Assembly (NCBI GenBank): GCA_963693055.1
Contig: OY843751.1
Coordinates: forward strand, 1,408,001-1,472,000
DNA length: 64,000 bases
From: a bacterium
GTDB lineage: Bacteria > Zhuqueibacterota > Zhuqueibacteria > Residuimicrobiales > Krinioviventaceae
Direction of reading: 5' to 3'
Made by a program: the position numbers and the translations under genes
Part shown: piece after piece, positions 19,820 through 35,719 of the stretch
Layout of the letters: each line of letters begins with the position of its first letter
Position numbering within the stretch: position 1 is the stretch's first letter
The notes under the pieces: model-generated
Database searches by the model: none
What the model was told of the DNA's origin: nothing
The model's input: only the letters and a program-made list of their open reading frames with translations

Positions 19820-20932
19820 TTGGGGCTAGATTTCAAAAATATAGACTTGGTGAATGATCACGTTAGAGACGTACAGGCACTTTTTGCTCTAAACCGGGTA
19901 ACGGATTCTATACAAATTATGGATGAATTGGGAAAAAGTGTCTTCCACAATGATTCGTTTATCAATTTGTTTGGCTATACAGTTGACCAGTTGAATGAAG
20001 CGGGTGGTTTGTATGCTATTCTTAAAGATCCTCAAATTGCAAATATTATTGTAAACGAGTTGGAAGTTAAGCCCGGTTGGATGGGTAAAGTTCAAATTTA
20101 TACATTAGCGGGCAACCTTGTTTCAGTTGTATTGAGGATTAACAAGGTTAAAACAGAAAATAATGAAAACCAGGGATACGTTTGTTTTTTTTCAAACAAT
20201 CTGTATCAGTATAATGTATATGCTGAAAAAGGCAAATATTACAGACACTTTGAAGAAGCAGAAAAGCTCGCCAGATTGGGGTATTTCTCATCAGTTATTT
20301 CTCATGAATTAAACAATCCTTTAAACATTATTAATACAAAGATTTATTTTTTGCAAAGAGAGCTGGAATCGATTTCTAAAGAATCTGAAGTGTGGGAACA
20401 TTTAACAAAGATCAAACAGCAACTCAAACGGTTGAAAAATCTAGCAAGCAGTGTTTTGCAATATGCCAGACATGATGTAAAAAAAGATTATCTTGTTAAT
20501 GTTAACCAGGTGATACAGCGTACTTTGGAATTCTTTGATGATCAGCTTACAGATGAAATAATTGTAATAAATAGATTAGATAAAGAAGTATCGCTTGTTC
20601 CTGCAGATTCAACGGGGTTAGAGATTGTATTTAAAAATTTGATATCTAATGCAATTGAAGCGTTGGAAGAATCCGGCACAATCACAATATCCACCCGAAA
20701 TGTAAATGAAAAATTTATTGAAATTACAATATCTGATTCCGGTAAAGGTATATCCGAAGATTTGCAGGAAAAGGTATTTGACCCCTTTTTCACCAGTAAA
20801 AGTAAAGAAGGGGGCTATGGATTGGGTCTAAGTATTTGTGAAAATATTATACATGAGCACAATGGAATGATTAATCTAAGAAGCAGGATTGGCAGAGGAA
20901 CAACGTTTGTCTTACTATTACCCCGTTTGTAA
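19820..20932 (+). CDS. Cytoplasmic PAS-domain sensor histidine kinase
   Basis: SHELNNPL H-box, NLISNA N-box, DSGKGI, FDPFFTSK, GYGLGL; PAS-like N-terminus; no TM helix seen. Confidence 0.92.
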   Translation: MGLDFKNIDLVNDHVRDVQALFALNRVTDSIQIMDELGKSVFHNDSFINLFGYTVDQLNEAGGLYAILKDPQIANIIVNELEVKPGWMGKVQIYTLAGNLVSVVLRINKVKTENNENQGYVCFFSNNLYQYNVYAEKGKYYRHFEEAEKLARLGYFSSVISHELNNPLNIINTKIYFLQRELESISKESEVWEHLTKIKQQLKRLKNLASSVLQYARHDVKKDYLVNVNQVIQRTLEFFDDQLTDEIIVINRLDKEVSLVPADSTGLEIVFKNLISNAIEALEESGTITISTRNVNEKFIEITISDSGKGISEDLQEKVFDPFFTSKSKEGGYGLGLSICENIIHEHNGMINLRSRIGRGTTFVLLLPRL

Positions 20933-20947
20933 TAAGGGATTTATTAT

Positions 20948-22324
20948 ATGTTCAAAGTACTGCTGGTTGATGACGAAATAGAAATTCTAAGAGATTACTC
21001 TCGTTTGATCATGGAAATGGGTTATCAATGCATTATTGCCAGAAATGGTGAAGAAGCGATCGAGTTGTTGAAACAAGAACATCCGGATATAATTTTGACG
21101 GATCAGAAAATGCCCAAAAAGGGTGGCATGTCTGTATTGCAGGAAGCATATGCGCTAGACAAGTCCATACCAGTGATTCTGATTACAGGGTATGGCTCTG
21201 TAAAAAATGCCGTGGATGCCATGAAGTTTGGTGCGTTTGATTATCTGCAAAAGCCATTTGATCCTGAAAAAATGCAGGAATTGCTGAAAAAGGCGGAAAA
21301 GTTTCGTAAAGAAAAATTAAATATTCCTATCGTTGAACTGGATGGGGATTACAGCAAGCCGCTTGAAGGGGTAATAGGGAAAAGCAAAGTTATTACCGAT
21401 ATTACAAAACGAGTATACAAAGTAGCGCCATCCATTTCTAATGTGTTAATCTATGGAGAATCTGGTACCGGCAAAGAACTTGTTGCCCGCAACATCCACT
21501 TGAACAGTAAACGTAAAGATCAACCCTTTATACCACTGGATTGCAGTGCGCTCCCGGCAAATCTGTTAGAAAGCGAAATGTTTGGCTATGAAAAAGGCGC
21601 GTTTACAGGGGCTGATAGGGAAAAACCCGGAGTTATTGAGCTTGCGCATAAAGGTACTTTGTTTCTGGATGAAATAACAGAACTGGATGCCAGCTTGCAA
21701 TCAAAGTTGTTACGTTTTATTCAGGAACGGCATTTCCGTAAAGTGGGAGGCCAGAAATTAGTCAAAGTTGATGTTCGTATTATTTCAGCAACCAATCGAA
21801 ATCCTGAAGAGGCAGTTAAAGAGAAATTGTTACGTAGTGATCTGTATTATAGATTAAATGTAGTTCCTTTCTTTATTCCTCCTTTGAGAGATCGAAGTGA
21901 AGATGTTTCCATACTCGTACAGCATTTCATTGAAAAGTTTAATCCTTCATTCGCACGCGAGATCAAGGGAGTGAGTTCAGATGCCATGTTGTGTTTAAAG
22001 CGATTCAACTGGCCGGGTAATGTTAGGGAGCTTCAGAATGTGATTGAACAAGCCATGTCTTTGGCAGATAAAAATATAATCGATTTGTCAGATTTGCCAC
22101 CCCATGTGCGGGAAAACCACAACAACTATGTAGATCAGGTCCATCATGGACAAACATTCAAAGATGCAAAAGAGAAAATATTAAAACAGTTTGGTAAAAG
22201 ATATTTTCAAGACCTGCTTGTTCAGTGTGATGGCAATATCTCAAAAACCGCGAAAATAGCAGGTATCAGTAGAAGTTCATTTTATCGTATACTTGATGAA
22301 TTTGATATAAAACTGCCCGATTAA
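20948..22324 (+). CDS. Sigma54-dependent response regulator (NtrC family)
   Basis: REC domain (VDDE, TDQKMP, KP), GESGTGKE, GAFTGA, LFLDEI, WPGNVREL, Fis-type HTH. Confidence 0.95.
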   Translation: MFKVLLVDDEIEILRDYSRLIMEMGYQCIIARNGEEAIELLKQEHPDIILTDQKMPKKGGMSVLQEAYALDKSIPVILITGYGSVKNAVDAMKFGAFDYLQKPFDPEKMQELLKKAEKFRKEKLNIPIVELDGDYSKPLEGVIGKSKVITDITKRVYKVAPSISNVLIYGESGTGKELVARNIHLNSKRKDQPFIPLDCSALPANLLESEMFGYEKGAFTGADREKPGVIELAHKGTLFLDEITELDASLQSKLLRFIQERHFRKVGGQKLVKVDVRIISATNRNPEEAVKEKLLRSDLYYRLNVVPFFIPPLRDRSEDVSILVQHFIEKFNPSFAREIKGVSSDAMLCLKRFNWPGNVRELQNVIEQAMSLADKNIIDLSDLPPHVRENHNNYVDQVHHGQTFKDAKEKILKQFGKRYFQDLLVQCDGNISKTAKIAGISRSSFYRILDEFDIKLPD

Positions 22325-22331
22325 TTGTATT

Positions 22332-22349
22332 TGTACTATTCTTGACACA
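22332..22349 (+). promoter_or_regulatory. Candidate enhancer-binding site (TGT-N12-ACA)
   Basis: TGTACTATTCTTGACACA; shares TGTACTA-N8-ACA with the reverse complements of the sites at 22978 and 23047. Confidence 0.45.
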
Positions 22350-22507
22350 CCCTTCCTATTACTTGTTTTTATTAGACATCCATTCATTTAGTCCTTTGTA
22401 TGCTCTGTTTTTGAATCAATTTTCGCATTTTTCGTAAATTATATCGAAATAGTGGTTTTTTAACTGTTTAATTATCAAAGTGTTATCTTGATTGCTACAG
22501 GTAATTG

Positions 22508-22522
22508 TGGCCCTTTTTTTGT
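22508..22522 (+). promoter_or_regulatory. Candidate sigma54 -24/-12 promoter
   Basis: TGGCCCTTTTTTTGT (GG-N10-GT, imperfect -12) about 35 bp before ATG 22556. Confidence 0.35.
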
Positions 22523-22555
22523 TTATTGTGTCATAATTCATCGTGGGAAAATATC

Positions 22556-22957
22556 ATGTGTTCACTTGCGTTAATTTCTTCAACAGATATTCAGTTGATA
22601 AACGAGATCAATTCTCTGTTATTAACCAGGAATTTTTCTGTACTGGTTGAGAAATCCAGAGTGTCTTTACTATACTTGATTCTAAAACATGATATTAATT
22701 TTATCCTCTTGGACATTGGTTATATGGATCCTGAAGCGATCAAAGTGCTTTACATAATTAAGCAGTTGCGTCCCAAATTGCCAGTTATTGTTTTAACCCC
22801 GGACAATTCGGTAGTTCACAATCAGGTATTAAAATCAATGGATGTGTTTTATGTTGGTTTTAAGCCATTGCATTATCAAAATTTTTCAATGATTATAGAT
22901 ACCTTGCTATTACTTCGTGGTAAAAGTACCGAATATTTATTAGACTCGATTGAATGA
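22556..22957 (+). CDS. Stand-alone, atypical receiver-domain protein
   Basis: FILLD, RPKLPVIVLT, GFKPL; the N-terminal acidic DD pair is absent. Confidence 0.7.
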   Translation: MCSLALISSTDIQLINEINSLLLTRNFSVLVEKSRVSLLYLILKHDINFILLDIGYMDPEAIKVLYIIKQLRPKLPVIVLTPDNSVVHNQVLKSMDVFYVGFKPLHYQNFSMIIDTLLLLRGKSTEYLLDSIE

Positions 22958-23235: not shown

Positions 23236-23841
23236 ATGGGACTAGTAGGTTTTGTGATTAACATTTACAATGGCAAGCAAAAGCTTGATAGGGTATTGAT
23301 TTGTATAATCATAATGTTAATGACAAATATTAATTTTGTTTTCTCTCAAGATCAAGATTCTACATCTGTGGATTCTGTAAAGCAAAGCAAGACCCGGGAT
23401 ATTTTGCAGAAATTGTTGAATCAGGCAACTCAGGAATCTATTCAGGATGTAATGGAAAAGCAAAAAGCCATTGCGAAAAAAGATAGTGTCAAAGACAGCT
23501 CAGATGAAGGTCTTGAAATTGATGGATTATTGATCAATGAAACCAAAACTAAAATTGGCCAGGACTTTTACGAATTCTTTTTCAATTTTTGGCAGGCACC
23601 TGAGAATGCTAAAGATTTTACATTGTTTGTGTCTGAAAGACCAACAGGAAACAGCGGAAGCTGGATCTGGGTAAATGTGAATGAAACCACAGTATTTCAA
23701 AACCGATTAACCCCCAAAGCCGACTTGATTGAGGAAACTGCACAAAGCGCTGTATCTATTGTCACAAATTATTTGATAAATCTGGATCAAAACCAAAGAC
23801 AGCTTGCTGGTGATGAAATGGCTGGGACTGGAATTTTTTAA
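23236..23841 (+). CDS. csgE: Curli assembly protein CsgE family
   Basis: EIDGLLINETKTKIGQDFYEFF..W...ERP...GSWIWV.VN...DEMAGTGIF; lies upstream of csgF and csgG; the true start may be slightly downstream. Confidence 0.85.
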   Translation: MGLVGFVINIYNGKQKLDRVLICIIIMLMTNINFVFSQDQDSTSVDSVKQSKTRDILQKLLNQATQESIQDVMEKQKAIAKKDSVKDSSDEGLEIDGLLINETKTKIGQDFYEFFFNFWQAPENAKDFTLFVSERPTGNSGSWIWVNVNETTVFQNRLTPKADLIEETAQSAVSIVTNYLINLDQNQRQLAGDEMAGTGIF

Positions 23842-23853
23842 GGAGATGGATGA

Positions 23854-24279
23854 ATGCCTCGGGTAGTTAAATGTTTTATACTTTTAATTTTATTTGCAAG
23901 CAGTGCATTTGCAACTGAATTGGTTTTTACGTTTGTTAATCCTGCTTTTGGCGGTTACTATTATAATGCTACATGGTTGTTGAATTCTGCACAACTTCAA
24001 GATGATACCGGTGAATCTTCAAGTTCTTATGCCAGCAGTTATTATTCTGGATCATCCCTGGAAGATTTTGAAGAAAGTATAAACCGTCAGATTCTGAGTC
24101 GTTTATCCAGCAAGCTTGTGACGCAAATATTTGGAGAAGAAGATCTGGAACCTGGTCACTATGAGATTGGTGATTTTCAGATTGATGTAACTCCATCAGA
24201 CAATGGGATACGTGTTGAAATAAATGATCCGGTTAATGGCGGCGAAACAGTTATAGAATTACCCTATTATGGTGACTGA
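23854..24279 (+). CDS. csgF: Curli assembly protein CsgF
   Basis: Signal peptide, then TELVFTFVNPAFGG..NATWLLNSAQLQ...F.ESINRQILSRLS. Confidence 0.92.
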   Translation: MPRVVKCFILLILFASSAFATELVFTFVNPAFGGYYYNATWLLNSAQLQDDTGESSSSYASSYYSGSSLEDFEESINRQILSRLSSKLVTQIFGEEDLEPGHYEIGDFQIDVTPSDNGIRVEINDPVNGGETVIELPYYGD

Positions 24280-25711
24280 GAGTAGTGTAAATATGAAAAT
24301 GAGACCTGTATTCTATACAATTTTTATAATTATTTTGATTTTTATGGGGTGTGCTCCCTATTTACAGCAAAGTAATCCTGTTCACACCACCCCGGCTACA
24401 TTGGGGTATACCACTGCAATACATAGCGATTTGCTTTCATTGCCTGAACCACGTGAAAAGATTGTTGTTGCGGTATACAAGTTTAGAGACCAGACCGGAC
24501 AGTACAAAGCTTCGTCAAGTGGAATGACATGGTCCACAGCTGTTACCCAGGGTGCTACATCTATGCTGCTAAAAGCTATGGAAGAATCTGGTTGGTTTAT
24601 TGTTGTGGAGCGGGAAGGCATTTCAAACCTGTTGAATGAAAGAAAGATCATTCGTTCTACCCGAGAGAATTATACGGACGACCAGGGACAGCAATTACCC
24701 CCATTACCTCCATTGCTTTATGCCGGAGTTACAATAGAGGGTGGAATAATTTCGTACGAAACCAATACATTAACCGGTGGTTTTGGCGCACGATATTTCG
24801 GCATAGGGGGTAATAACGAGTTTCGCAGTGATCAGGTAAATATTTATTTACGTTCGGTTGCAACAAAATCCGGTCGGATTTTAAATCAGGTAAATACTAC
24901 AAAGACAATATTATCTCAAGCTGTAGATTTTAGTGTATATAAATTTGTAAGAGAAAGCCGTTTGTTAGAGATTGAGAGCGGTTATTCTACCAACGAACCT
25001 CCACAAATGTGTGTGCTGGAAGCCATAGAAAAAGCCGTACTGGCTCTTGTTTGTGAAGGTATTGTATCAAAGAGCTGGGAGCTGAAAAATCCTGCGGATA
25101 TTAAATCCCCGGTAATACAGCGGTATCTTGAGGAAAAGCAAAACACAACAAAATATACGTTGCAGAATAGTATGCTCAACAGCAGATATGCAAAACCTCA
25201 ATATGGTTATGACAAGGGATTAGGGCTCACCTTGAATTTGGGAAGTCATTTATACCAGGGCGATTACGCGAATTCTGAAATTCGTCCAATGGGTGACGCT
25301 TCCATTTTGTGGGGTTTGCATCCCAATGTTTTGTTGGAATTAAATGGCAGTATAGGGCGGATTGCAAATAAAGATAATTTTTATACTGATTTGGGTTATT
25401 TGAATTTACAAAGCCGTTTTACATTTTGGTCTAATTCAAGATTTCGGCCATTCGGAATTTTGGGAGCGGGAGCAATGAATTTTAGAGCACGGGATAAAGC
25501 GGGTGTGTACATTCCACGTAAGAAACGGTTTAAAGGCTGGGAGCCTGTAATGATTTCTGGTTTAGGCGTTGAATATTTTATTAATCCCAGTTTGAGTATG
25601 AATCTAAGCTTTATAAATCAATATACCTTTACAGATTACCTGGATGGGGTTATCCATGGAAGTTATGATGACTATTTCTGGGGATTCAAGCTGGGGTTTA
25701 GTTATTATTAG
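24269..25711 (+). CDS. csgG: Curli secretion channel CsgG with a C-terminal outer-membrane beta-barrel domain
   Basis: Lipobox FMGC; LPEP..KIVVAVYKFRDQTGQYK, STAVTQGA, WFIVVEREG..NLLNERKIIR, EGGIISYE, YSTNEP; about 180 extra residues ending GFKLGFSYY. Start may be 24293 or 24299. Confidence 0.93.
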   Translation: MVTESSVNMKMRPVFYTIFIIILIFMGCAPYLQQSNPVHTTPATLGYTTAIHSDLLSLPEPREKIVVAVYKFRDQTGQYKASSSGMTWSTAVTQGATSMLLKAMEESGWFIVVEREGISNLLNERKIIRSTRENYTDDQGQQLPPLPPLLYAGVTIEGGIISYETNTLTGGFGARYFGIGGNNEFRSDQVNIYLRSVATKSGRILNQVNTTKTILSQAVDFSVYKFVRESRLLEIESGYSTNEPPQMCVLEAIEKAVLALVCEGIVSKSWELKNPADIKSPVIQRYLEEKQNTTKYTLQNSMLNSRYAKPQYGYDKGLGLTLNLGSHLYQGDYANSEIRPMGDASILWGLHPNVLLELNGSIGRIANKDNFYTDLGYLNLQSRFTFWSNSRFRPFGILGAGAMNFRARDKAGVYIPRKKRFKGWEPVMISGLGVEYFINPSLSMNLSFINQYTFTDYLDGVIHGSYDDYFWGFKLGFSYY

Positions 25712-25947
25712 GATCAGTTGAATACTGAAAGCTATCTGATTGGGATCTGGTAAGGGCAGATAGAATAAGTGAACATCACGCAGATGTAAAGAACAAACGT
25801 ATTTTGACAATTTAATTGCATCAACAGGCAATCATTAAATTATTACTCTCAAAGGATTCACTGTTGATACCTGTGGAAATGAACTGTTCATTTCCCAATG
25901 TAAACAATTGCTACATGAAAAAATGCAATGCAAAGCGTAGTTGAGGA

Positions 25948-27267
25948 GTGAGGATGAGAATTTTCATGTCTGTTCTACTGGCACTGTTGTTATTTTCAAG
26001 TGTTGGTATTGGTGCAGAAAACAGTGTGACTGCTAATGTAAACGGTAATTTCAATCAATCAACAGTTACGCAAGAGGGATCAGCAAACACAGCTTCCGTT
26101 GACCAAAACAGTGCTGCAACCAAATCTGCAGAAATGAATACTGTTGCTGTCACTCAAAAAAGTGATGATAATACCGCAACCGTAAATCAAGGATCTGTTT
26201 TAAAAACAAAATATGTAAAGAATACAACTGCAATTGTAACCCAGGCAGGCACAGGAGGGAACAGTGCAATCGTTAATCAGGGAACCCAAATCCATAATGG
26301 TTCAGTTGTATCTAATGCAACGGCAACAATCAATCAAAAAGGTGGCTCTGGAAACAGTGCAGAGATTAATCAAAAATCCTGGAATTCGAATGCATCTCCA
26401 ACCAAATGGAGCAAGCCGGATGATAATACCGCAACCATTATCCAGGATGGTTCAGGCAATATCGCAAGCTCAAAATCGGATGTGACCCGTGGATCAACAT
26501 TTATCCTTCAAGAAGGTAATGAAAATACGGCAACCCAAAAACAGGATGGTGAGCGGGATTTTAAAGCCAGAATTACTCAGGAAGGTAACCATAATACTGC
26601 AACACAATTTCAACATGGCGATGCAAATGCAAATGCGGAAATAATTCAAAAAGGCATGGGCAATACAGCATCGCAATGGCAGAAAAAAAATAATAATAGC
26701 TTGATCTATCAGGATGGTGTAGACAATACAGCAGACGTAGAACAAAAATCCGGCAGTAATATCAAAGCCAACATATATCAATATGGAAGTTATAATGGTT
26801 CTGTTGCTGATCCTGTTTTGATTGAACAAAAAGGTGGATCAGGGAATTCTGCTGTTATATATCAGGGTGATCCTGCTTTGAATGTTTATAACAATAGCGC
26901 AATGATCTATCAGGATGGAACATTGAATCTGGCAGCTATTCAGCAATATAGTAATGAGAATGAAGTCATTTTATTTCAAAATGGGGTAGGGAATGAACTC
27001 CATGCATTACAAAAAGGAGGTGATGGGAACATTATCAATCTGACCCAGGATGGTGGTGCAACAGCATCTATTACTCAGGATGGCAGTGGTAATGTCTTGA
27101 AAGGGGTAGGGGCAGGAAATACTATGGGACAATCATTAAATGGCAGCAGTCTTGATTTAACTCAAACAGGTACGGGAAACGTGTTAGAGTTGTTTCAAAC
27201 AAATGGAGCAGCTGCTCAGGTCCAACAAAATGGTATGACAAATAAAGTAATAATAATACAAAATTAA
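25948..27267 (+). CDS. Curlin-repeat protein 1 (CsgA/CsgB-like amyloid subunit)
   Basis: Signal peptide plus many N-x-A-x-I-x-Q-x-G repeats; likely ATG 25954. Confidence 0.88.
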   Translation: MRMRIFMSVLLALLLFSSVGIGAENSVTANVNGNFNQSTVTQEGSANTASVDQNSAATKSAEMNTVAVTQKSDDNTATVNQGSVLKTKYVKNTTAIVTQAGTGGNSAIVNQGTQIHNGSVVSNATATINQKGGSGNSAEINQKSWNSNASPTKWSKPDDNTATIIQDGSGNIASSKSDVTRGSTFILQEGNENTATQKQDGERDFKARITQEGNHNTATQFQHGDANANAEIIQKGMGNTASQWQKKNNNSLIYQDGVDNTADVEQKSGSNIKANIYQYGSYNGSVADPVLIEQKGGSGNSAVIYQGDPALNVYNNSAMIYQDGTLNLAAIQQYSNENEVILFQNGVGNELHALQKGGDGNIINLTQDGGATASITQDGSGNVLKGVGAGNTMGQSLNGSSLDLTQTGTGNVLELFQTNGAAAQVQQNGMTNKVIIIQN

Positions 27268-27279
27268 GGGAGTAGGGTA

Positions 27280-28761
27280 ATGAAAAGGTTGTTTGTTTTT
27301 TTGCTGGTATTATGTATGTCATCACTTTTGATGGCTGCAAGTAATACAATATCCACCACAATTAATGGTAATAGTAATGATGCAGATATTGATCAGGTGG
27401 GTGGCGACCAGTCCGCTACATTAACACAAACCGGAAATTCGAATGATGCGATTTTAGACCAGGTTACTGATGATGGTATGGCACAGTCTTTAACAGTTAC
27501 CCAGGAAGGGAATCGTAATCTGGCAAATGTTAACCAAAAAGAAGATGGGGCCGCAACAAATGGAACATCTTTGCCTGTTCAAACAGCCAGTGTATACCAA
27601 AAAGGTGATGGAAATTCAGCAAAAATAGATCAGGATGAGCTCGGTTCTGGTGATAAATATTTGAGCAGTGCTGCAATTCAACAGATTGGCAACAATAACG
27701 CTTCAGATCAAAGAACCTACGCTCCCGGCTCTAACAGTGGTCAACATGTTACGGGTATACAGGCTGGAAACGGTAACAGTTTGACGCAGAAAATTTTGGG
27801 TGGCTATACTAATAATTTTATAGCAACCCAAACAGGTAATGGAAATACAGTTGAGCAAATTATGCCTTCCGGCACACACAGCAAGGGAGTTGTGAATCAG
27901 GATGGTGATAGCAATATTGCTTCTCAACGTTTAACAGGAGCCAATAATGGTTATTCATCTGCTGGTGGTATTACAGTAACTCAAACAGGCAATGGTAACG
28001 AAGCAGATCAGGATGTTATAAGTACGGGAAGCTATACCAATAATAACGATGCTGATGTTGTTCAAAATGGTTCTAGTAATTATTCCAAGCAAGATGTGAA
28101 TGGTTGGCAGACAGATGTTGATGTTACCATTGATGGCAATAGCAACTCTACTAGCCAGTTTGTAGTTGGTACCGGAAACAAGAGTACAGTTAAGGTCATT
28201 GGAAATGGAAACAGTGTAATAACCAACCAGGCAAATGATAATAACACGGCTTCTGTTGAGATTAAAGACGAAGACGCGTATGTTGGTAATTCTAACGATG
28301 TTTTTATCAAACAAAACAATAACGGTAACAAAGCCAATGTAACCCTGCATGGATCTTATAACTCTGTAGATATTACCGAAGTTGATGGCAACGGTGATTG
28401 GCATGTTGTTAAAGTTATGAAAGGTAATAGCAATGATATTGATATATCAGCCAAAACCGGTGGAAATAATCGTGGTGAGTGGATATTGAAAAATGCCAGC
28501 GGTAATACTGTAAAGGAAGTGCAGAATGGAAGTGATAACATTGCCGGTGGTGAGGTTAAAGGTAGTGGTAATGATATCAATATTGTACAAAAAGGTGTTG
28601 ATAACCTGGTTGGTACTGATCCCAATAATTGGAATGTAAATGATGGTGTTGTAATTGACGGTAACAGTAACACAGTTGATATTGATCAATTAACGAATTC
28701 AAACCAGGCTGTAGTTAATATTATTGGTGCAAGTAACCAGTTTAAATCAGTTCAACAATAA
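27280..28761 (+). CDS. Curlin-repeat protein 2
   Basis: Signal peptide; Q-x-G-N-x-N repeats throughout 493 aa. Confidence 0.88.
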   Translation: MKRLFVFLLVLCMSSLLMAASNTISTTINGNSNDADIDQVGGDQSATLTQTGNSNDAILDQVTDDGMAQSLTVTQEGNRNLANVNQKEDGAATNGTSLPVQTASVYQKGDGNSAKIDQDELGSGDKYLSSAAIQQIGNNNASDQRTYAPGSNSGQHVTGIQAGNGNSLTQKILGGYTNNFIATQTGNGNTVEQIMPSGTHSKGVVNQDGDSNIASQRLTGANNGYSSAGGITVTQTGNGNEADQDVISTGSYTNNNDADVVQNGSSNYSKQDVNGWQTDVDVTIDGNSNSTSQFVVGTGNKSTVKVIGNGNSVITNQANDNNTASVEIKDEDAYVGNSNDVFIKQNNNGNKANVTLHGSYNSVDITEVDGNGDWHVVKVMKGNSNDIDISAKTGGNNRGEWILKNASGNTVKEVQNGSDNIAGGEVKGSGNDINIVQKGVDNLVGTDPNNWNVNDGVVIDGNSNTVDIDQLTNSNQAVVNIIGASNQFKSVQQ

Positions 28762-28796
28762 GTTATTGTTGATGCTTTAATTGAAATCGGAATACT

Positions 28797-28821
28797 TTTG
28801 GCAGAAAAATTTTCTGCCAAA
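28797..28821 (+). terminator. Intergenic stem-loop
   Basis: TTTGGCAGAAAA-A-TTTTCTGCCAAA. Confidence 0.5.
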
Positions 28822-28906
28822 TTTACATAAAATTTGAAAATCAATAAATAATAATAGGGTATTGATTTCAAACATAAATAACAAAATCTCAAGAAAGGGG
28901 TAACAA

Positions 28907-30010
28907 ATGAAAAAGTTAGTAGTTGTGTTAATGCTGGTTGCAATGGTAGGATTTGCATTTGCGGCAAATGAAGCTACTGTAACAGAAGATGGTGACAATA
29001 ATACCGCGACCGTAACTCAACGCGGTAACTTGAACGATGGTACAGTTGAACAGATAGGTGATCAACATACTGCAACTATCAATCAAGCAACTGCAAGCAA
29101 TGATGCATTTATTGGACAGTTGAATGGTAACAAGAATGAAGGTGCAATAAGGCAGCAGGGTAGTGAAAATGCGGCATATATTACCCAAGGTATGGCCGTA
29201 GGTTATTCAGATTCATATTCTCCGGCTTCTGCAAGTAACAATTTATCAACTGTTGACCAGGTTGGTAATGGTAATACCACTTCTGCAAAACAATTTGGTG
29301 ATAAAAATGTTACAGATGTAAACCAGAACGGTCATCGGAATACAGCCTATGCATATCAGGGTTGGACTTATAATGGTTGGGGCGAAACCTGGACAACTTC
29401 CAGATTGCAGAGTTTCAATAGTGATGTGACAATTTCTCAGGCAACTAATGACAATAATGGAGCAGTATGGCAGTATGGTGGCAACAGGAACAATGTTACT
29501 ATAAATCAACGTGTTGGCAATGCAAATACTGCAAGTGTCTCTCAAGGTTTCATTTATAATGATGGCGCTTATGATTACCCACATCCAGTTTATAACACTA
29601 AAGACAATGATGCAATTGTAACCCAGGCAGGTGCAAGTAATACAGCCAAATTATTTCAATTAGGTGATAATAATACTTTTACATTATCTCAAACAGGTAA
29701 TAGCAACTCTGTAGGTTATGGTGCTGCATTAGCAAGCCTTGTTGAAAAAAGGAATGCTTACTTTGATCAATCTGGTGATAACAATGTGTTTACTGGAACA
29801 CAAACAGGTGGTGCTACAGTTGAATATGAAAGTTATCAGGTTGGTGATAATAACACAATAAGTCTTTATCAGGGAACAAGTGATGTAACTTTGATCCAAC
29901 AAGATGGTAATTGGAATACTGCAACCAATACTCAACTGGGTGGCGGCCAGGTTTCCAGTATTGCACAAACAGGTAATGGAAATAATGCATCTGTAAATCA
30001 AGGAATGTAA
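28907..30010 (+). CDS. Curlin-repeat protein 3
   Basis: Signal peptide MKKLVVVLMLVAMVGFAFA; curlin repeats; close paralog of the gene at 30108. Confidence 0.88.
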   Translation: MKKLVVVLMLVAMVGFAFAANEATVTEDGDNNTATVTQRGNLNDGTVEQIGDQHTATINQATASNDAFIGQLNGNKNEGAIRQQGSENAAYITQGMAVGYSDSYSPASASNNLSTVDQVGNGNTTSAKQFGDKNVTDVNQNGHRNTAYAYQGWTYNGWGETWTTSRLQSFNSDVTISQATNDNNGAVWQYGGNRNNVTINQRVGNANTASVSQGFIYNDGAYDYPHPVYNTKDNDAIVTQAGASNTAKLFQLGDNNTFTLSQTGNSNSVGYGAALASLVEKRNAYFDQSGDNNVFTGTQTGGATVEYESYQVGDNNTISLYQGTSDVTLIQQDGNWNTATNTQLGGGQVSSIAQTGNGNNASVNQGM

Positions 30011-30017
30011 GTTATAA

Positions 30018-30047
30018 CTGTACCCAAATATTTCAATTTGGGTGCAG
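30018..30047 (+). terminator. Intergenic stem-loop
   Basis: CTGTACCCAAAT-ATTTCA-ATTTGGGTGCAG. Confidence 0.5.
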
Positions 30048-30107
30048 AATTTTATAATATGTTTCGGTAAACATATAATAAATAATCATCATTGAAAGGG
30101 GCAACAA

Positions 30108-31214
30108 ATGAAAAAGTTAGTCGTTATTTTAATGCTGGTTGCAATGGTAGGATTTGCATTTGCAGCAAATGAAGCAACCGTAACAGAAGATGGAAACAAT
30201 AATTCCGCAACAGTAACCCAACGTGGTAATTTGAATGCCGGTACAGTTGATCAGAATGGTGATCAACATGTTGCTACACTTAGTCAATCCACTGCCAGTA
30301 ATGAAGCATTTATCGGTCAATTGAATGGTAATAAAAATGAAGCACATGTAAACCAACAGGGTAGAGAAAATGCAGCAGATGTAAACCAAGGCATGATCGA
30401 AGGCTTGGATCCTACGTTTGCATCTAAAAATGTTTCTGGTAGCAATAACTTGACAAATTTGACCCAGGTTGGTAATGAAAACTATAATCAAACTGTACAA
30501 ACTGGTGATAAAAATGAAACAAATGTAAGTCAGGCCGGGCATCGTAATATTGCTTATTCATATCAGGGCTGGCCCTATGCACAATGGGGAGAAACATGGA
30601 CAACTTCCAGATTACAGAGCTACAATAGTGATGTAAGAATAAGCCAGGCAACAAATGACAATTATGGAGCAGTATGGCAGTATGGTGGCAACAGAAATAG
30701 TGCCACTGTTACACAACGAGTTGGTAATGCAAACTATGCAAGTATTGCACAAGGCTTTATCTATACTGATGGTGCTTATGATTTTGATCATCCAGTATAT
30801 GATACCAAAGACAATGATGCCGTTGTAACTCAGGCAGGTGCAAGTAACTCTACTCGTTTGTTTCAGTTGGGTGACAATAATAGTTTCACATTGACTCAAA
30901 ATGGTAATTCAAATACTGTTGGTGGGCGTGATCTTTCAGGTCTTGTTAATAAACGTAATGGTTATTTTGATCAATCAGGTGACAATAACTTGTTTTCAGG
31001 TTCTCAAAATGGTGGAGCAACTGTAGAAATTGCTAGTTATCAGAATGGTGATAATAATACAATTACCCTCTATCAAGGTACTAATGATGTAACAACATTA
31101 CAGCAAACAGGAAACTGGAATACTGCAACCAATACTCAATTGGGTGGTGGCCAGGTATCTAGTATTGCACAAACGGGTAATGGAAATACAGCATCTGTAA
31201 ATCAGGGACTGTAA
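30108..31214 (+). CDS. Curlin-repeat protein 4 (tandem duplicate of protein 3)
   Basis: Collinear with 28907-30010, with long identical blocks. Confidence 0.88.
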   Translation: MKKLVVILMLVAMVGFAFAANEATVTEDGNNNSATVTQRGNLNAGTVDQNGDQHVATLSQSTASNEAFIGQLNGNKNEAHVNQQGRENAADVNQGMIEGLDPTFASKNVSGSNNLTNLTQVGNENYNQTVQTGDKNETNVSQAGHRNIAYSYQGWPYAQWGETWTTSRLQSYNSDVRISQATNDNYGAVWQYGGNRNSATVTQRVGNANYASIAQGFIYTDGAYDFDHPVYDTKDNDAVVTQAGASNSTRLFQLGDNNSFTLTQNGNSNTVGGRDLSGLVNKRNGYFDQSGDNNLFSGSQNGGATVEIASYQNGDNNTITLYQGTNDVTTLQQTGNWNTATNTQLGGGQVSSIAQTGNGNTASVNQGL

Positions 31215-31222
31215 TCTTATAT

Positions 31223-31254
31223 TTTGCCTGGAGTATGATGCTACTCCAGGCAAA
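31223..31254 (+). terminator. Intergenic stem-loop
   Basis: TTTGCCTGGAGTA-TGATGC-TACTCCAGGCAAA; a second hairpin TTTGAATTCCAAA...TTTGGAATTCAAA follows at about 31263-31305. Confidence 0.6.
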
Positions 31255-31347
31255 TAAATTTGTTTGAATTCCAAAACTCATAGACACAGGGCTTTGGAAT
31301 TCAAATATTTTGTTGAAATGGAATTACTTAATGCTAGTGGAGTTTAT

Positions 31348-32328
31348 ATGAAAAAGCACCTGATTCAACTTTTGTTATTATTATTTGCAGGCTTGTTATT
31401 AGCAGCTGGTAATAGTGCTGATGTTGATCAAACGAACGATTATAATGATGCGTCTGTAGTTCAAACCGGTAATAATAATATTGCTGATGTAGATCAAGTT
31501 AGTACCGCTACAACCAGCAGTGAGGGTAACATTGCTGAAATAACTCAAGCCAGCAGTAATAATGATTTCACTGTTGACCAAACCGGCAAATCTAACGTTG
31601 CAATTATGAGTAATCAAGTGCGGAATGGAGCTGTCTCAAAAGTTTATCAGAATGGTGTTGATAACAGAGCTGAGGCAGAGCTGAAATCAAGTGGTTTCTT
31701 GACAGGAAAAAGCTTTACATCATTTCAGGAACAAATTGGAAATCATAATGTAACTTCCAGAATCAGAATGGATGGAATTAATAGCAGTACATACAATTTT
31801 CAATTTGGTGACTATAACCACTCTCACACTTCGATTTTGGGAAACAATAATTGGATATTGGTTACCCAGGGTGTGAGTTTTGCTGCGGCAGATCACAACT
31901 ATGTTTATAGTGAAACCGAAGGTAACAATAATGATGTTATTGTCGATCAGGTAGGCGATTTTAACAGAACGATTATTGTGCAGGAATTCCAATCCAATAC
32001 GAGTATTGTTGACTTGGATCAAACAAATGGTTCGAATGCTACCATTAAGCAGAACTCTCTCAAAATGGACAAGAATTATCAAAATGTTGTAAAGTTGAAC
32101 CAAACCAATAGTTCTTTTGCTACTATTAACCAAGGTGGTAGTAATGGCGGTGGTTATAATGTAGTTAAAGGATTGGGCACTGCAGAATTTGGACAATCGT
32201 TAAATGGAAGTATTTTGGACATTGATCAAATTGGCAATCATAATGTTGTAAGCTTGTATCAGGATGATGGTATTGCTACTGTAAGTCAAACTGGTAATAG
32301 TAATGATGTAATTATACATCAATATTGA
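31348..32328 (+). CDS. Curlin-repeat protein 5
   Basis: GGAG RBS, MKKHLIQLLLLLFAG signal peptide, curlin repeats; C-terminus similar to protein 1. Confidence 0.85.
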   Translation: MKKHLIQLLLLLFAGLLLAAGNSADVDQTNDYNDASVVQTGNNNIADVDQVSTATTSSEGNIAEITQASSNNDFTVDQTGKSNVAIMSNQVRNGAVSKVYQNGVDNRAEAELKSSGFLTGKSFTSFQEQIGNHNVTSRIRMDGINSSTYNFQFGDYNHSHTSILGNNNWILVTQGVSFAAADHNYVYSETEGNNNDVIVDQVGDFNRTIIVQEFQSNTSIVDLDQTNGSNATIKQNSLKMDKNYQNVVKLNQTNSSFATINQGGSNGGGYNVVKGLGTAEFGQSLNGSILDIDQIGNHNVVSLYQDDGIATVSQTGNSNDVIIHQY

Positions 32329-32415
32329 TTGCAAATTAATCAAGATTTCTTTTTTAAAGATTGTTTACCATGTGAAATTGGATTATTCTTGGCAAGTAAA
32401 ACCGTAAGGGTAAAA

Positions 32416-32949
32416 ATGAAATTGCCAAAATTTATAATTATTCTGGTTTTTGCATTATCGTTTCATCTTTATGCACAATATGATGTTAAAGTTGAACAGG
32501 ATGGAAATAATAATGAAATCCTAGTTAACCAGTCCGGATTGTTCAACAAGATCAATGTTTTACAACGAGCTGACAATTCCCGTTCCGTAATCAACCAAGA
32601 CGGAACGGGTAATGTCATTACTCAAATCAATGAGAATTCTGATTCGGGTGCAATAACCAAGCAAAAAGTTGTTCAGGATGGTGATTATAATTATTCAAGA
32701 ATCGATATTGATGGAGCTCAAACGCTTTCAGATTATAATACTACTATTTCTCAGGAATATGGTAATGGCAATGAAGCACAAATTACATCAATTGGGATGA
32801 AAAATGGTAGTAATTCAGAAAACGATTTACTGATTCAACAACATGGATCAAATAATTATGGTGATTTACAGGTTTATGGTATGGGGTTGGGAGGTAGTAT
32901 TATACAAACAGGTGATAATATGTCCGTAACAGTTATTCGTACAAATTAA
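32416..32949 (+). CDS. Short curlin-repeat protein 6 (possible CsgB-like nucleator)
   Basis: Signal peptide; VEQDGNNNEILVNQSG, INQDGTGN, IQQHGSNN, IIQTGDNMSVTVIR. Confidence 0.8.
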   Translation: MKLPKFIIILVFALSFHLYAQYDVKVEQDGNNNEILVNQSGLFNKINVLQRADNSRSVINQDGTGNVITQINENSDSGAITKQKVVQDGDYNYSRIDIDGAQTLSDYNTTISQEYGNGNEAQITSIGMKNGSNSENDLLIQQHGSNNYGDLQVYGMGLGGSIIQTGDNMSVTVIRTN

Positions 32950-33084
32950 AATAGAATAATTCCAGCATATTTCTCAATATTATTGCCTGATAGCTTAATC
33001 CATGTCATTCACACACTATTATCTTGCCAAAATAAAAGAGTATGACAGAGTTTATGAACAGGTTTTACTAACTCTAATGAATAG

Positions 33085-34185
33085 ATGAGAAATACAATTG
33101 GTAAATACATATATTATTTCATGCTTTTATCTTTTCCCTTTTCTTCAACAACTGCGCAGGAAATTTTAACTGTAATTCCCAATACAATTCAATTGGATCT
33201 GGTACCCGGCTATTTAGAAGTGGTTGATGTTAAAGTAATGAATACCTTTGACAAGGATTTGCAAATAAAAGTTGATTATGACACTACCTGGGTAGATGTT
33301 TCTCCATTCGAGTTCAGTCTTTTACCTGGTAATATGACCCAATTGCTGGTCTTTTTTTTCATTCCAACAGGTCAAACACCGGTTTCGAATGGTTCAATTA
33401 TTTTTAAAAATAAAAACAATAGCCAGGTTTTAAACAAAATTGATCTAATTCTAAACTCAACATCAACTAAATCTCAAAATATTGATAACCAAAATAATTA
33501 CGAACCGCCGAACACAAATAATGATAATTATATTAATCCCCAAATACTTGAGCTGCAGCAACAGATCCAGAAAGATCAGCTTGTGATTTCTGATCTGGAA
33601 AGCCAATTGAACAAAAAAGATTTAGAAATTGCCAAGTTGTTAGATGCAAATGAATCAAACTCGGATGAATTTGTACTTGCTTCATTTCCCAAGGTTGATG
33701 AAAATCAATCAGTGGGCTTTGATGCACTCAATTCTTTATACAATGTATTGCTTCGTGAGATGAATTCTGATCTAAAAAATAATAAAGCAGTACTTGACTT
33801 TTCCCAAAATAAAATATATTTTTCTATCTCAGGAGAGATCGCATTTATTTCTGGTGGAAATTATTTGAGATTGGAAGGGGAAAGGGTGTTGAATCGATTT
33901 TCAAACGTGTTGAAAAATTTTTCTTATAAAGATTTCAAGATTATGGTTGTTGGGCATACGGATTCGGTACAATATAAAGACGGTATGCGGCAGGAAACAT
34001 TTGGCAACTGGGAGCTATCTGCGCTTAGATCTGTCAAAGTAATCAAGCATTTACAGAAAATGTCCGATTATTCTGGTACTCATTTACTTGCATCCTGCCA
34101 GGCATCATATTCACCCATTGCTCCCAATAATACCAAAAATGGAAGGATTGCAAATCGGAGAATTGAAATTATTATTTCCTATTAA
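33085..34185 (+). CDS. OmpA/MotB-family peptidoglycan-binding protein with N-terminal Ig-like domain and coiled coil
   Basis: VVGHTDS, NWELSALRS, PIAPNNTKNGRIANRRIEIII; signal peptide. Confidence 0.85.
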   Translation: MRNTIGKYIYYFMLLSFPFSSTTAQEILTVIPNTIQLDLVPGYLEVVDVKVMNTFDKDLQIKVDYDTTWVDVSPFEFSLLPGNMTQLLVFFFIPTGQTPVSNGSIIFKNKNNSQVLNKIDLILNSTSTKSQNIDNQNNYEPPNTNNDNYINPQILELQQQIQKDQLVISDLESQLNKKDLEIAKLLDANESNSDEFVLASFPKVDENQSVGFDALNSLYNVLLREMNSDLKNNKAVLDFSQNKIYFSISGEIAFISGGNYLRLEGERVLNRFSNVLKNFSYKDFKIMVVGHTDSVQYKDGMRQETFGNWELSALRSVKVIKHLQKMSDYSGTHLLASCQASYSPIAPNNTKNGRIANRRIEIIISY

Positions 34186-34216
34186 ATATATTGTGACTAT
34201 CAAACTCTGCCATTAA

Positions 34217-35719
34217 ATGAGGTACGAAATGAAACTGAATGCAATGAAATGGATAATGCCTGTTGTGATAGCTCTGCTGGTTTTGATCAGTTGTACAGAA
34301 GATCCTATTGATCCTGTAACTACCGGAAATATAAGTGGGCAGGTAATACATTCTGAAACATTAGAACCCATATCCGGGGCAAATATTACTACAACACCTG
34401 CATCTATAGCAGTAAATACAGATATTTCTGGTAATTATCAAATTGAAGGTGTGGAACAAGGAACGATAACTGTCAAGGCTACCAAAACCGGATATAAATC
34501 TTCATCCATTAGTATACTGGTTGAACCCAGTCAGAATACAATAGCCAATATACAAATGTCTGAATCCACACAGACAAATGATGCACCAAATTCACCTTCT
34601 AGTCCGGTACCTGACAATGGTGCAAGTGATCAATCAACAAGCATTACTTTGACATGGCGTGCGAGTGATCCCAATTCTGATGATACGTTGTATTACGATG
34701 TATATCTGGGCAATTCAGGCCCTATGCATTTAATCTCAGAAAATCAAACAGATACAACCCTGGGATTAACAGATTTGAGTTATGGACACACATACCACTG
34801 GCAGGTTGTAGCAAGAGACCAGGAGGGATTAGAGACAAACAGCCCGGCATGGAGTTTTACTACGTCTGATTTCCCCCGGTATTCCATTGTTTTTGCATCA
34901 AACGTTGATGGTAACTATAATATTTTTACCGGTTCTGGTGATGGTGCGGATTCAATACGACTCACGATTGATCCCGGTAGAGATTGGTATCCCCGTTTTA
35001 GCCCGAATCGTGAAAAAATAGCGTTTACTTCGAATCGGAATGTTGAATCTCAGTTGTTTATTATGAATTATGATGGAAGCGATCTTGAACAAATCTCGAG
35101 TATACCTGTTGTGGGGTATAATAATTATGGAACAGGATTTTGTTGGAACCCAACTGGGCATAAGCTGTTATATGCCAACTATGAAAAATTATACAGGATT
35201 GATTCCGATGGAGATCAGTTAACACAAATTGCTACAGCACCCGAAAATCGTAATTTTTACGAAATGGATTGGTCGCCCGTTGGTGGAAAAATAGCGGCAA
35301 TTACTATGGGAAGTAATGTATATGATACTGAATTGTATATAATGAATGAAAATGGATCCAATATGACCTTGTTGCTTGATAATGTAACCGGTCGTATGGG
35401 GCATCCAACATTTTCGCCCGGTGGTGATCGGATTGCATATTATTATGATATCTCTGGTTACGAATCTGGGAATAACAGAATGCTTGACGCATGTATCCAT
35501 ATTATTGACATAGCAATGACTGATACCACAAACTTGTCAACTAATAAACCTGTTGGAACGAATGATATTGATCCTGTATGGACTCCTGATGGTGCACATA
35601 TCATTTTTACTAATGTTCCCAATGATAATTCTGGAAATCCATCGGTATGGATTATGAATACCAGCGGAGAGTCTCGTGAAAAATTGTTTGATAACGCACA
35701 AATGCCGGATTGGAGATAA
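34217..35719 (+). CDS. Lipoprotein with carboxypeptidase-regulatory-like, FN3-like and TolB-like (PD40) beta-propeller domains
   Basis: Lipobox LISC; GNISGQV..PISGA..TD.SGNY; TLTW.ASDP..YDVYLG..YHWQVVARD; PRFSPN, WNPTG, WSPVG, FSPGG, WTPDG, MPDWR. Confidence 0.87.
   Translation: MRYEMKLNAMKWIMPVVIALLVLISCTEDPIDPVTTGNISGQVIHSETLEPISGANITTTPASIAVNTDISGNYQIEGVEQGTITVKATKTGYKSSSISILVEPSQNTIANIQMSESTQTNDAPNSPSSPVPDNGASDQSTSITLTWRASDPNSDDTLYYDVYLGNSGPMHLISENQTDTTLGLTDLSYGHTYHWQVVARDQEGLETNSPAWSFTTSDFPRYSIVFASNVDGNYNIFTGSGDGADSIRLTIDPGRDWYPRFSPNREKIAFTSNRNVESQLFIMNYDGSDLEQISSIPVVGYNNYGTGFCWNPTGHKLLYANYEKLYRIDSDGDQLTQIATAPENRNFYEMDWSPVGGKIAAITMGSNVYDTELYIMNENGSNMTLLLDNVTGRMGHPTFSPGGDRIAYYYDISGYESGNNRMLDACIHIIDIAMTDTTNLSTNKPVGTNDIDPVWTPDGAHIIFTNVPNDNSGNPSVWIMNTSGESREKLFDNAQMPDWR

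Follow-up and report, generated by a model that had tools for sequence, protein, structure and literature searches.

The curli pore subunit CsgG encoded in the bacterial DNA analysed here carries a predicted second outer-membrane beta-barrel at its C-terminus. The DNA is a stretch of 64,000 nucleotides (the window, whose coordinates are used below) from contig OY843751.1, positions 1,408,001 to 1,472,000, of a member of the Krinioviventaceae (Zhuqueibacterota). The fused curli pore is widespread and apparently unstudied, and in Bacteroidota it is the usual form of csgG. We favour, with a probability of about 0.55, the reading that the barrel is a structural collar, which would anchor the pore and offer a platform beside it rather than act as a second export channel. 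A lipoprotein with an N-terminal carboxypeptidase-regulatory-like domain (CRD), encoded downstream, is a candidate new member of the curli operon. The curli pore is a model of membrane insertion independent of BAM, the machinery for beta-barrel assembly, and the base of a sequencing nanopore, and what is known of it comes almost entirely from E. coli. The usual CsgG of Bacteroidota and their sister phyla exceeds that length by 60-70% and has a typical BAM client attached, which raises the question of self-inserting and catalysed routes within one chain.

A curli CsgG with a predicted C-terminal barrel

One unbroken open reading frame (ORF) at 24269-25711, on the forward strand like all features given below, encodes csgG. 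The ATG at 24293 is a likelier start than the opening of this longest ORF because it lies clear of the csgF stop, upstream of it at 24279, and is used by P0002, a protein with 97% identity; from there the fused gene (24293-25711) encodes 472 aa, and residues are numbered from this start. The protein opens with a lipoprotein signal peptide and the lipobox FMG-C20 (24293-24352), with no acidic export-like signal past the cysteine. This cysteine was kept in 111 of 113 aligned CsgG rows, indicating that the barrel is no substitute for the lipid anchor, and none of the 111 had two or more acidic residues at positions +2 to +5.

The CsgG pore domain occupies residues 20-282 (24350-25138). The Pfam CsgG family PF03783 spans residues 50-265 (E 5e-61, 206 bits against a cut-off of 20.8), identity to E. 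coli CsgG is 42% over a 271-residue span (residues 10-278) in which both membrane hairpin regions are aligned, and Foldseek matched the domain to 4uv2, 4uv3 and 6l7a. The HfaB model reached a mere 42 bits against a cut-off of 300, and the enterobacterial equivalog NF011731 stayed below its own (234 bits against 505, with a length of 472 aa against about 277 aa). As csgE and csgF precede the gene and six curlin genes come after it, it was assigned to curli CsgG and not to a CsgG/HfaB paralogue. Judged by homology and context, the protein is a curli CsgG, though not the enterobacterial form, and by analogy it would form a nonameric, 36-stranded pore secreting curlin.

Residues 310-472 (25220-25708) are predicted to fold into an eight-stranded barrel of the OmpA/NspA type. 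AlphaFold2, given 113 aligned sequences, placed exactly eight strands between residues 311 and 471, with a predicted local distance difference test value of about 95 (87-98 by block over residues 311-472). Across the 113 homologues every barrel strand had a single hydrophobic face (0.62-0.87 versus 0.17-0.42). Foldseek matched the barrel to OmpA, Ail, NspA, OmpW and OprF, and VIA-align ranked a Legionella Dot/Icm porin, known by its title, first (9nh2, Z 19.1, root-mean-square deviation (rmsd) 2.2 A, 157 aligned), followed by NspA (Z 17.9), OprF (16.7), OmpA (16.5) and OmpW (16.2). The match to PF13505 (OMP_b-brl) stayed under the gathering cut-off (21 bits against 28.7; E 0.009 for the whole protein and 3.5e-4 for the C-terminal part alone); PF13505 was detected at E <= 0.01 in 41 of 54 aligned homologous barrels (best 4.5e-9), and the OprF barrel was recovered by profile with E 0.0016. 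Thus a complete CsgG joined to an eight-stranded OmpA-type barrel, as proposed in an earlier interpretation of the letters alone (the sequence-only reading), was borne out.

Loop 1 carries the motif YQGDY with the invariant D324 (25253-25267), and loop 4 carries D448-x-L-D451-G...G-x-x-D/N-D460-Y-F-W with three invariant aspartates (25634-25681), so that all four invariant aspartates of the barrel belong to loops predicted to face outward. The barrel alignment showed no His, Ser or Cys that is invariant. The four motifs that the sequence-only reading quoted are all present in the ORF, but those of the barrel are family-wide and not curli-specific; for the same reason, a curli-specific catalytic or docking motif was considered and rejected. 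The last strand has, across the family, the beta-signal-like pattern G-x-x-[YF]-Y-[LFI], which appears here as G468-x-x-Y471-Y472 without the hydrophobic residue that comes next. That reading had also noted a terminal aromatic residue: a tyrosine does end this protein, but it is not the last barrel residue of the family, as 110 of the 113 rows extend beyond its position, 94 of them with L, F or I there. The protein stops at the last barrel strand, with no OmpA_C domain behind it. In P0006 (662 aa) the barrel is duplicated in tandem, with part of the loop motifs gone in the second copy.

By sequence, the closest non-CsgG relatives of the barrel are N-terminal anchor barrels of non-curli envelope proteins, where they serve as tethers for TPR or OmpA_C domains. 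A barrel profile found five other proteins in the genome of the studied DNA, comprising N-terminal barrels before coil-TPR regions, TSP3 repeats with OmpA_C or other domains, and one stand-alone barrel. The best non-CsgG matches were TPR-type barrel proteins (80-101 bits), and because the top-scoring non-curli barrels share the four loop-1 and loop-4 aspartates, these residues are a family trait. Barrel-type matches were present in most of 61 relatives, 58 of which had some match, with or without curli. Uncharacterised proteins made of barrel, coiled coil and TPR (G000:C1:2988501-2989805 (L082), and L093-L096) are apparently common in the lineage, and we take them to resemble a membrane-anchored CpoB/YbgF. 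No stand-alone orthologue of the barrel was found among 1603 candidates, the four matches being two CsgG-fragment-like and two PorG/DUF6089-like proteins.

An OmpA-type barrel starts at the membrane's periplasmic face. The C-terminal region of CsgG faces the periplasm according to the accessible part of one report (PMC12822426). In barrel-less CsgGs this C-terminal slot is often a long low-complexity tail. A cell-wall-binding domain filled it in 18 of 86 barrel-less proteins scanned (SPOR in 13, AMIN in 2, besides OmpA_C, SH3b and BON), the 86 being 85 of 108 barrel-less representatives, picked mostly by length, plus one longer match; the recurrence of such domains points to envelope anchoring as a repeated use of the slot. 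Other domains found there were CarboxypepD_reg, TonB_C, PEGA or Sel1 (P0145, P0185, P0181 and P0252). Among 7491 candidates for longer fusions (>826 aa, for example CsgG with a lipoprotein), the single match was a barrel-less CsgG with curlin repeats, a blank that is weak evidence.

Distribution and descent of the fused gene

The fusion is common well beyond the window. Of the 120 best database matches, 119 span at least 92% of the query protein. In genomes, we collected the best 80 of at least 583 csgG loci; this sample is biased, since the profile that retrieved it was built from fused proteins. The barrel lay within csgG in 75 of the 80 loci (72 intact ORFs, two cut by contig ends and one, L076, split), and the remaining five, four from Planctomycetota and one from Nitrospinaceae, were barrel-less. 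An assembly artefact absent from homologues, which the sequence-only reading had named as fatal to its proposal, is therefore not what these loci present. Sampling by taxon, which is less biased, gave csgG in 5 of 61 relatives' genomes, fused in all five; among 401 Bacteroidota genomes csgG was present in 33 (one being a chosen centre), with 24 fused, one cut by a contig end and eight barrel-less; and among 301 Planctomycetota genomes it was present in two (one a chosen centre), both barrel-less. The long CsgGs that had been suspected in Bacteroidota are thus real, and the fused form is the usual one there. The barrel occurred in 42 of 150 CsgG cluster representatives and in cultured Flavobacterium, Marinifilum, Hymenobacter and Salinibacter strains. 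At least 7 of 48 plasmid records were fused (40 of the 48 among the matches listed), all from Salinibacter, Hymenobacter or Spirosoma. A genome of the same genus holds a second, fragmentary csgG (G001:C3, about 3500819-3501277; L123) some 33 kb from the intact copy. Fused csgG also appeared on contigs with ill-fitting labels, L005 (Saccharibacteria) and L051 (Porticoccaceae); for L051 mis-binning is likely because its neighbours are of Flavobacteriaceae type.

The barrel is under purifying selection: the ratio of nonsynonymous to synonymous substitution rates (dN/dS) was 0.02-0.13 in all pairs with computable dS, many of them near saturation. GC content is alike in both gene halves (0.41 versus 0.39; at third codon positions, 0.35 versus 0.36). 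Three runs of one sample, which is possibly the origin of the studied DNA, gave the whole stretch on single contigs. In a second study, csgG is spanned by a diverged contig that shows substitutions but, within the gene, no indel.

The history of the fusion was approached with a quick tree, rooted on E. coli and built from 90 chosen CsgG domains without the barrel. All 40 fused rows fell inside one 50-row group (support 94), where they are joined by the barrel-less planctomycete set, a protein of 290 aa and another that is probably frameshifted. The barrel state requires three changes on the tree. P0170, nested in the fused group, lacks the barrel, and its tail looks frameshifted. The barrel-less Bacteroidota csgG (three of nine in the tree) fall outside the group; csgE was not found in their loci, and their genomes, which are small, probably belong to green sulfur bacteria. 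This topology fits one ancient gain in bacteria of the Fibrobacterota-Chlorobiota-Bacteroidota (FCB) group followed by vertical descent, with the planctomycete forms either having lost the barrel or having branched before its gain. To judge by the best matches that bear names, the host of the studied DNA is itself an FCB-group bacterium, of KSB1/Calditrichota type. Outside the fused clade, P0176 (494 aa) has a different beta-rich, barrel-like tail without a Pfam match; it may have arisen by a separate barrel fusion or be a read-through artefact.

The companion lipoprotein, the putative collar and its alternatives

The CRD lipoprotein gene (34217-35719), overlooked in the sequence-only reading, lies 8.5 kb downstream of csgG and encodes a LISC lipobox, a C-T-E-D acidic signal, the CRD, Fn3 and a TolB-like propeller (Pfam, NCBIfam and Atlas). 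In neighbour clustering it was nearly as constant as csgE and csgF. It was present in 60 of the 75 barrel loci; of the other 15, 14 break off no more than 2.7 kb from csgG, and the last has the gene beyond the fetched flank. All 24 fused Bacteroidota genomes sampled and all three fused relatives tested had it. It was not found in eight of eight barrel-less Bacteroidota genomes, six of six barrel-less genomes of Planctomycetota or Nitrospinaceae, 40 genomes without csgG (one unrelated CRD match), a 0.8-Mb bin with a fused csgG near a contig end, or G377, whose csgG is cut by a contig end, absences that are weak in that at most 20 candidates were scored per genome and the 1e-25 threshold missed a true copy in G129. 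Copies follow three architectures (CRD-Fn3-propeller, CRD-Fn3, and CRD with another beta domain), of which the CRD alone is common to all. At least one acidic residue at +2 to +5 after the cysteine occurred in 57 of 57 copies and at least two in 45 of 57, compared with at least two in 18 of 239 lipoprotein-like ORFs in the genome of the studied DNA. A signal of this kind brings about surface exposure in Bacteroides and Capnocytophaga, as stated in the available text of PMC6222051, and the signal pattern suggests that the CRD lipoprotein is probably surface-exposed.

The linker between pore and barrel (residues 283-309, 25139-25219) is predicted to be periplasmic. The distance from Y278 to G311 is 33 residues here; 70 of 73 genes have 23-26. 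A ring of nine barrels, each 24-30 A, would need a radius of 35-44 A, against a backbone radius of about 31-36 A for an idealised 36-strand pore, dimensions that rest on idealised strand geometry and an assumed shear. Given this fit, nine barrels could ring the pore, and with a linker this short and fixed (about 25 residues) they would sit as a collar round it. For the ring of barrels envisaged in the sequence-only reading, this means that idealised geometry permits it and the fixed linker suits it, the ring itself being putative.

In the collar model, the lipidated CsgG would arrive at the outer membrane as E. coli CsgG does, and BAM would insert the barrel, beginning from the periplasmic C-terminal helix, a machinery of which E. 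coli CsgG has no need. Nine subunits would build the 36-strand pore, the linker would hold nine barrels ringed against it, and the resulting collar would steady the pore in the membrane. The collar would also be the likeliest docking site for the co-inherited CRD lipoprotein, itself probably on the cell surface; that the lipoprotein does dock on the barrel we regard as a tentative proposal. E. coli CsgG inserts without BamA or TamA and OmpA does not (PMC4973683, in its accessible portion on Dunstan et al. 2015), and by analogy BAM dependence of the fused barrel is a reasonable inference. Fibre anchoring and docking of periplasmic partners by the barrel, which had been put forward as well, are conjectural. 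A still wider proposal, doubtful at present, is that FCB bacteria possess a hybrid pore, both lipoprotein-sorted and BAM-dependent, whose nine barrels would dock the constantly co-inherited surface lipoprotein by way of its CRD; the lipoprotein would then be a new core component that anchors or organises fibres on the cell surface.

Several observations weigh against the collar and its partner. The predicted template modelling score of the whole chain was 0.58 (AlphaFold2 monomer), so that the model does not fix the barrel relative to the pore domain. No curli-specific docking patch was found, as the invariant loop residues are common to non-curli barrels. Intact csgE/csgF operons stand beside the related barrel-less CsgGs of Planctomycetota and Nitrospinaceae, which indicates that the barrel is not needed everywhere for curli export, and the pore domain has about half the dN/dS of the barrel, which thus evolves faster. 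A mirror-tree comparison over 51 loci found no co-evolution of barrel and lipoprotein above the operon background (partial r 0.16 for barrel and CRD distances, 0.20 for barrel and CsgF, 0.27 for CRD and CsgF). The two may co-occur by shared ancestry alone, and with just three changes of barrel state on the 90-row tree there are almost no independent contrasts. The acidic surface-export signal, moreover, is established in Bacteroidetes and would apply to the lineage of the studied DNA by analogy.

An unlikely though serious alternative is that the barrel is a biogenesis aid only, recruiting BAM or pinning monomers in FCB-type membranes, with no partner and no role after assembly. The different BamA/TamA requirements of CsgG and OmpA in E. 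coli (PMC4973683, same portion) and the beta-signal-like last strand agree with it, as do the lack of a curli-specific conserved surface and of co-evolution with the lipoprotein. It fits poorly with the kept lipobox cysteine and with the eight Bacteroidota genomes that have curlin genes and barrel-less CsgGs, and targeting alone gives no obvious need for a fixed linker length.

We consider it improbable that the barrel acts in the periplasm or with curli parts, positioning CsgE, CsgF or a CRD lipoprotein that would, like PorE, be periplasmic, and thereby linking pore to cell wall, much as PorG is bound to the PorK ring of type IX secretion. The barrel has a weak PorG similarity (NF052316, E 2.7e-9), P0145 is a CsgG representative with a CRD fused in the C-terminal slot, and the operon has CRD and propeller domains beside an OmpA_C protein, recalling the domains of PorE/PG1058 (PMC5053529, as far as its available text goes). 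Yet the PorG score is 37 bits against 130 and is equalled by non-curli proteins, and the C-terminal cysteine of PorG is absent. Moreover, the conserved barrel residues fall in predicted outer loops, the acidic signal of the lipoprotein points to the surface, and the OmpA_C gene was met in close relatives only.

There is little to recommend an activity of the barrel itself, such as a small-solute channel, a cation or lipopolysaccharide site, or a lipid-modifying enzyme, conditioning the membrane near the pore. The four aspartates that are invariant in these loops (1 and 4) could conceivably bind a cation, the fold is like that of OmpW, PagL and OprH, and a weak PagL match occurred in 2 of 54 barrels; PagL catalysis, however, proceeds by His/Ser, the barrel has no invariant His, Ser or Cys, and the aspartate motif also occurs in barrels that tether periplasmic domains. 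An assembly artefact or neutral passenger is hardly credible, for although conservation is lower in the barrel than in the pore domain, and the barrel is missing in P0170 and split in L076, the 72 intact fused ORFs come from many phyla and include cultured strains, the second-study contig has no indel in the gene, and dN/dS does not exceed 0.13.

The full text searched held no description of a CsgG-barrel fusion, subscription journals, patents and supplements being outside its scope. Two curli surveys give Bacteroidota operons without mention of a barrel in their accessible parts, and a widely cited survey states, in the part available, that subunit size has no effect on the size of CsgG (PMC3521004). 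In PMC12611786 the name CsgG stands in the reference list alone. The domain may be displayed in the supplements of the surveys and of NanoporeDB (PMC13397529, available in part), where CsgG-like models are trimmed. Our results point to an unrecognised member of the curli operon. For nanopore use they offer naturally occurring pores whose constriction differs and which, if the collar holds, come with a collar of their own in the membrane. Since cultured strains carry the fused form, deletion and cryo-EM are feasible.

The surrounding operon and comparison with known systems

The operon begins with csgE (23236-23841; PF10627, E 5e-26) and csgF (23854-24279; PF10614, E 1e-38). Downstream of csgG, six tandem curlin (CsgA/B-like) genes occupy 25948-32949 (25948-27267, 27280-28761, 28907-30010, 30108-31214, 31264-32328 and 32329-32949), each with PF07012 above cut-off. 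The third and fourth (28907-31214) share 73.5% identity, a recent duplication, and the six are otherwise divergent. Between curlins and lipoprotein, 33085-34185 encodes an exported protein with an Ig-like N-terminus, a coiled coil and an OmpA_C/MotB-type cell-wall-binding domain, which G014 and G051 have at the same spot of their curli loci and which is possibly a lineage-specific cell-wall tether. No CsgH match was obtained in the operon (23236-35719); in related loci the CsgH profile matched 29 ORFs, some of them joined to CsgE-like ORFs or lying in a cluster with them. Upstream of csgE, 19820-22957 encodes a PAS histidine kinase, an NtrC-type sigma-54 activator and a lone receiver-like ORF, and like regulators lie ahead of several related curli loci. 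Promoter scans were at chance for sigma-54 (28 matches versus 35.8 expected) and sigma-70 (14 versus 15.2). Elsewhere, the genome of the studied DNA carries a SprA-family translocon gene (G000:C1:5668030-5674050).

With E. coli CsgG (PF03783; PDB 4UV2, 4UV3, 6L7A, 6SI7) the protein shares its lipoprotein nature, its fold and its csgE, csgF and curlin neighbours; it is 195 residues longer, with the C-terminal eight-stranded barrel, and its constriction loop reads KASSSGMTWST where that of E. coli reads KPYPAS-NFST. The operon, unlike that of E. coli, is without csgC and csgD and has the extra CRD lipoprotein and OmpA_C genes. The OmpA, NspA, OprF and OmpW barrels (PF13505 clan; 1P4T, 4RLC, 3NB3, 2F1T) likewise consist of eight strands, all amphipathic, and align with Z 16-18 and rmsd 2.4-2.8 A at an identity of 9-16%; in OmpA and OprF the barrel is N-terminal to a cell-wall-binding domain, whereas here it is C-terminal to a lipidated pore subunit. 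The barrel-coil-TPR and barrel-TSP3-OmpA_C proteins of the FCB group (G000:C1:2988501-2989805, L092-L096) share the loop-1 aspartate and the D-x-LDG...G...D motif of loop 4, but their domain order is reversed, their signal peptide is ordinary, and they are uncharacterised and unlinked to curli genes.

PorG (NF052316; DUF6089-like), a more distant member of the barrel family, is an eight-stranded barrel attached to the lipoprotein ring of the type IX secretion machine (PMC12365241, from the accessible text). It is made as a protein of its own and bound to PorK by a disulfide, with about 6-7 copies in each ring, whereas the barrel here is fused 1:1. An assignment of the barrel as PorG was rejected, for it scores 32-37 bits on NF052316 against a cut-off of 130, is fused and has no cysteine. 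A cysteine within the last 25 residues, conserved in the PorG C-terminus, occurred in 5 of 113 barrel rows, and no protein in the genome of the studied DNA exceeded the NF052316 cut-off. PorE/PG1058, described in the available text of PMC5053529 as periplasmic and as having a propeller, a CRD and an OmpA_C domain, has the CRD and PD40 propeller types in common with the companion lipoprotein, which lacks TPR and OmpA_C and differs in its domain order, its Fn3 and its acidic export-like signal. Both domains of the fused protein were already known, databases annotate the CsgG and barrel pair automatically, and its function is inferred; new here are the kinship of the barrel with non-curli anchor barrels, the shared C-terminal slot and the accompanying CRD lipoprotein.

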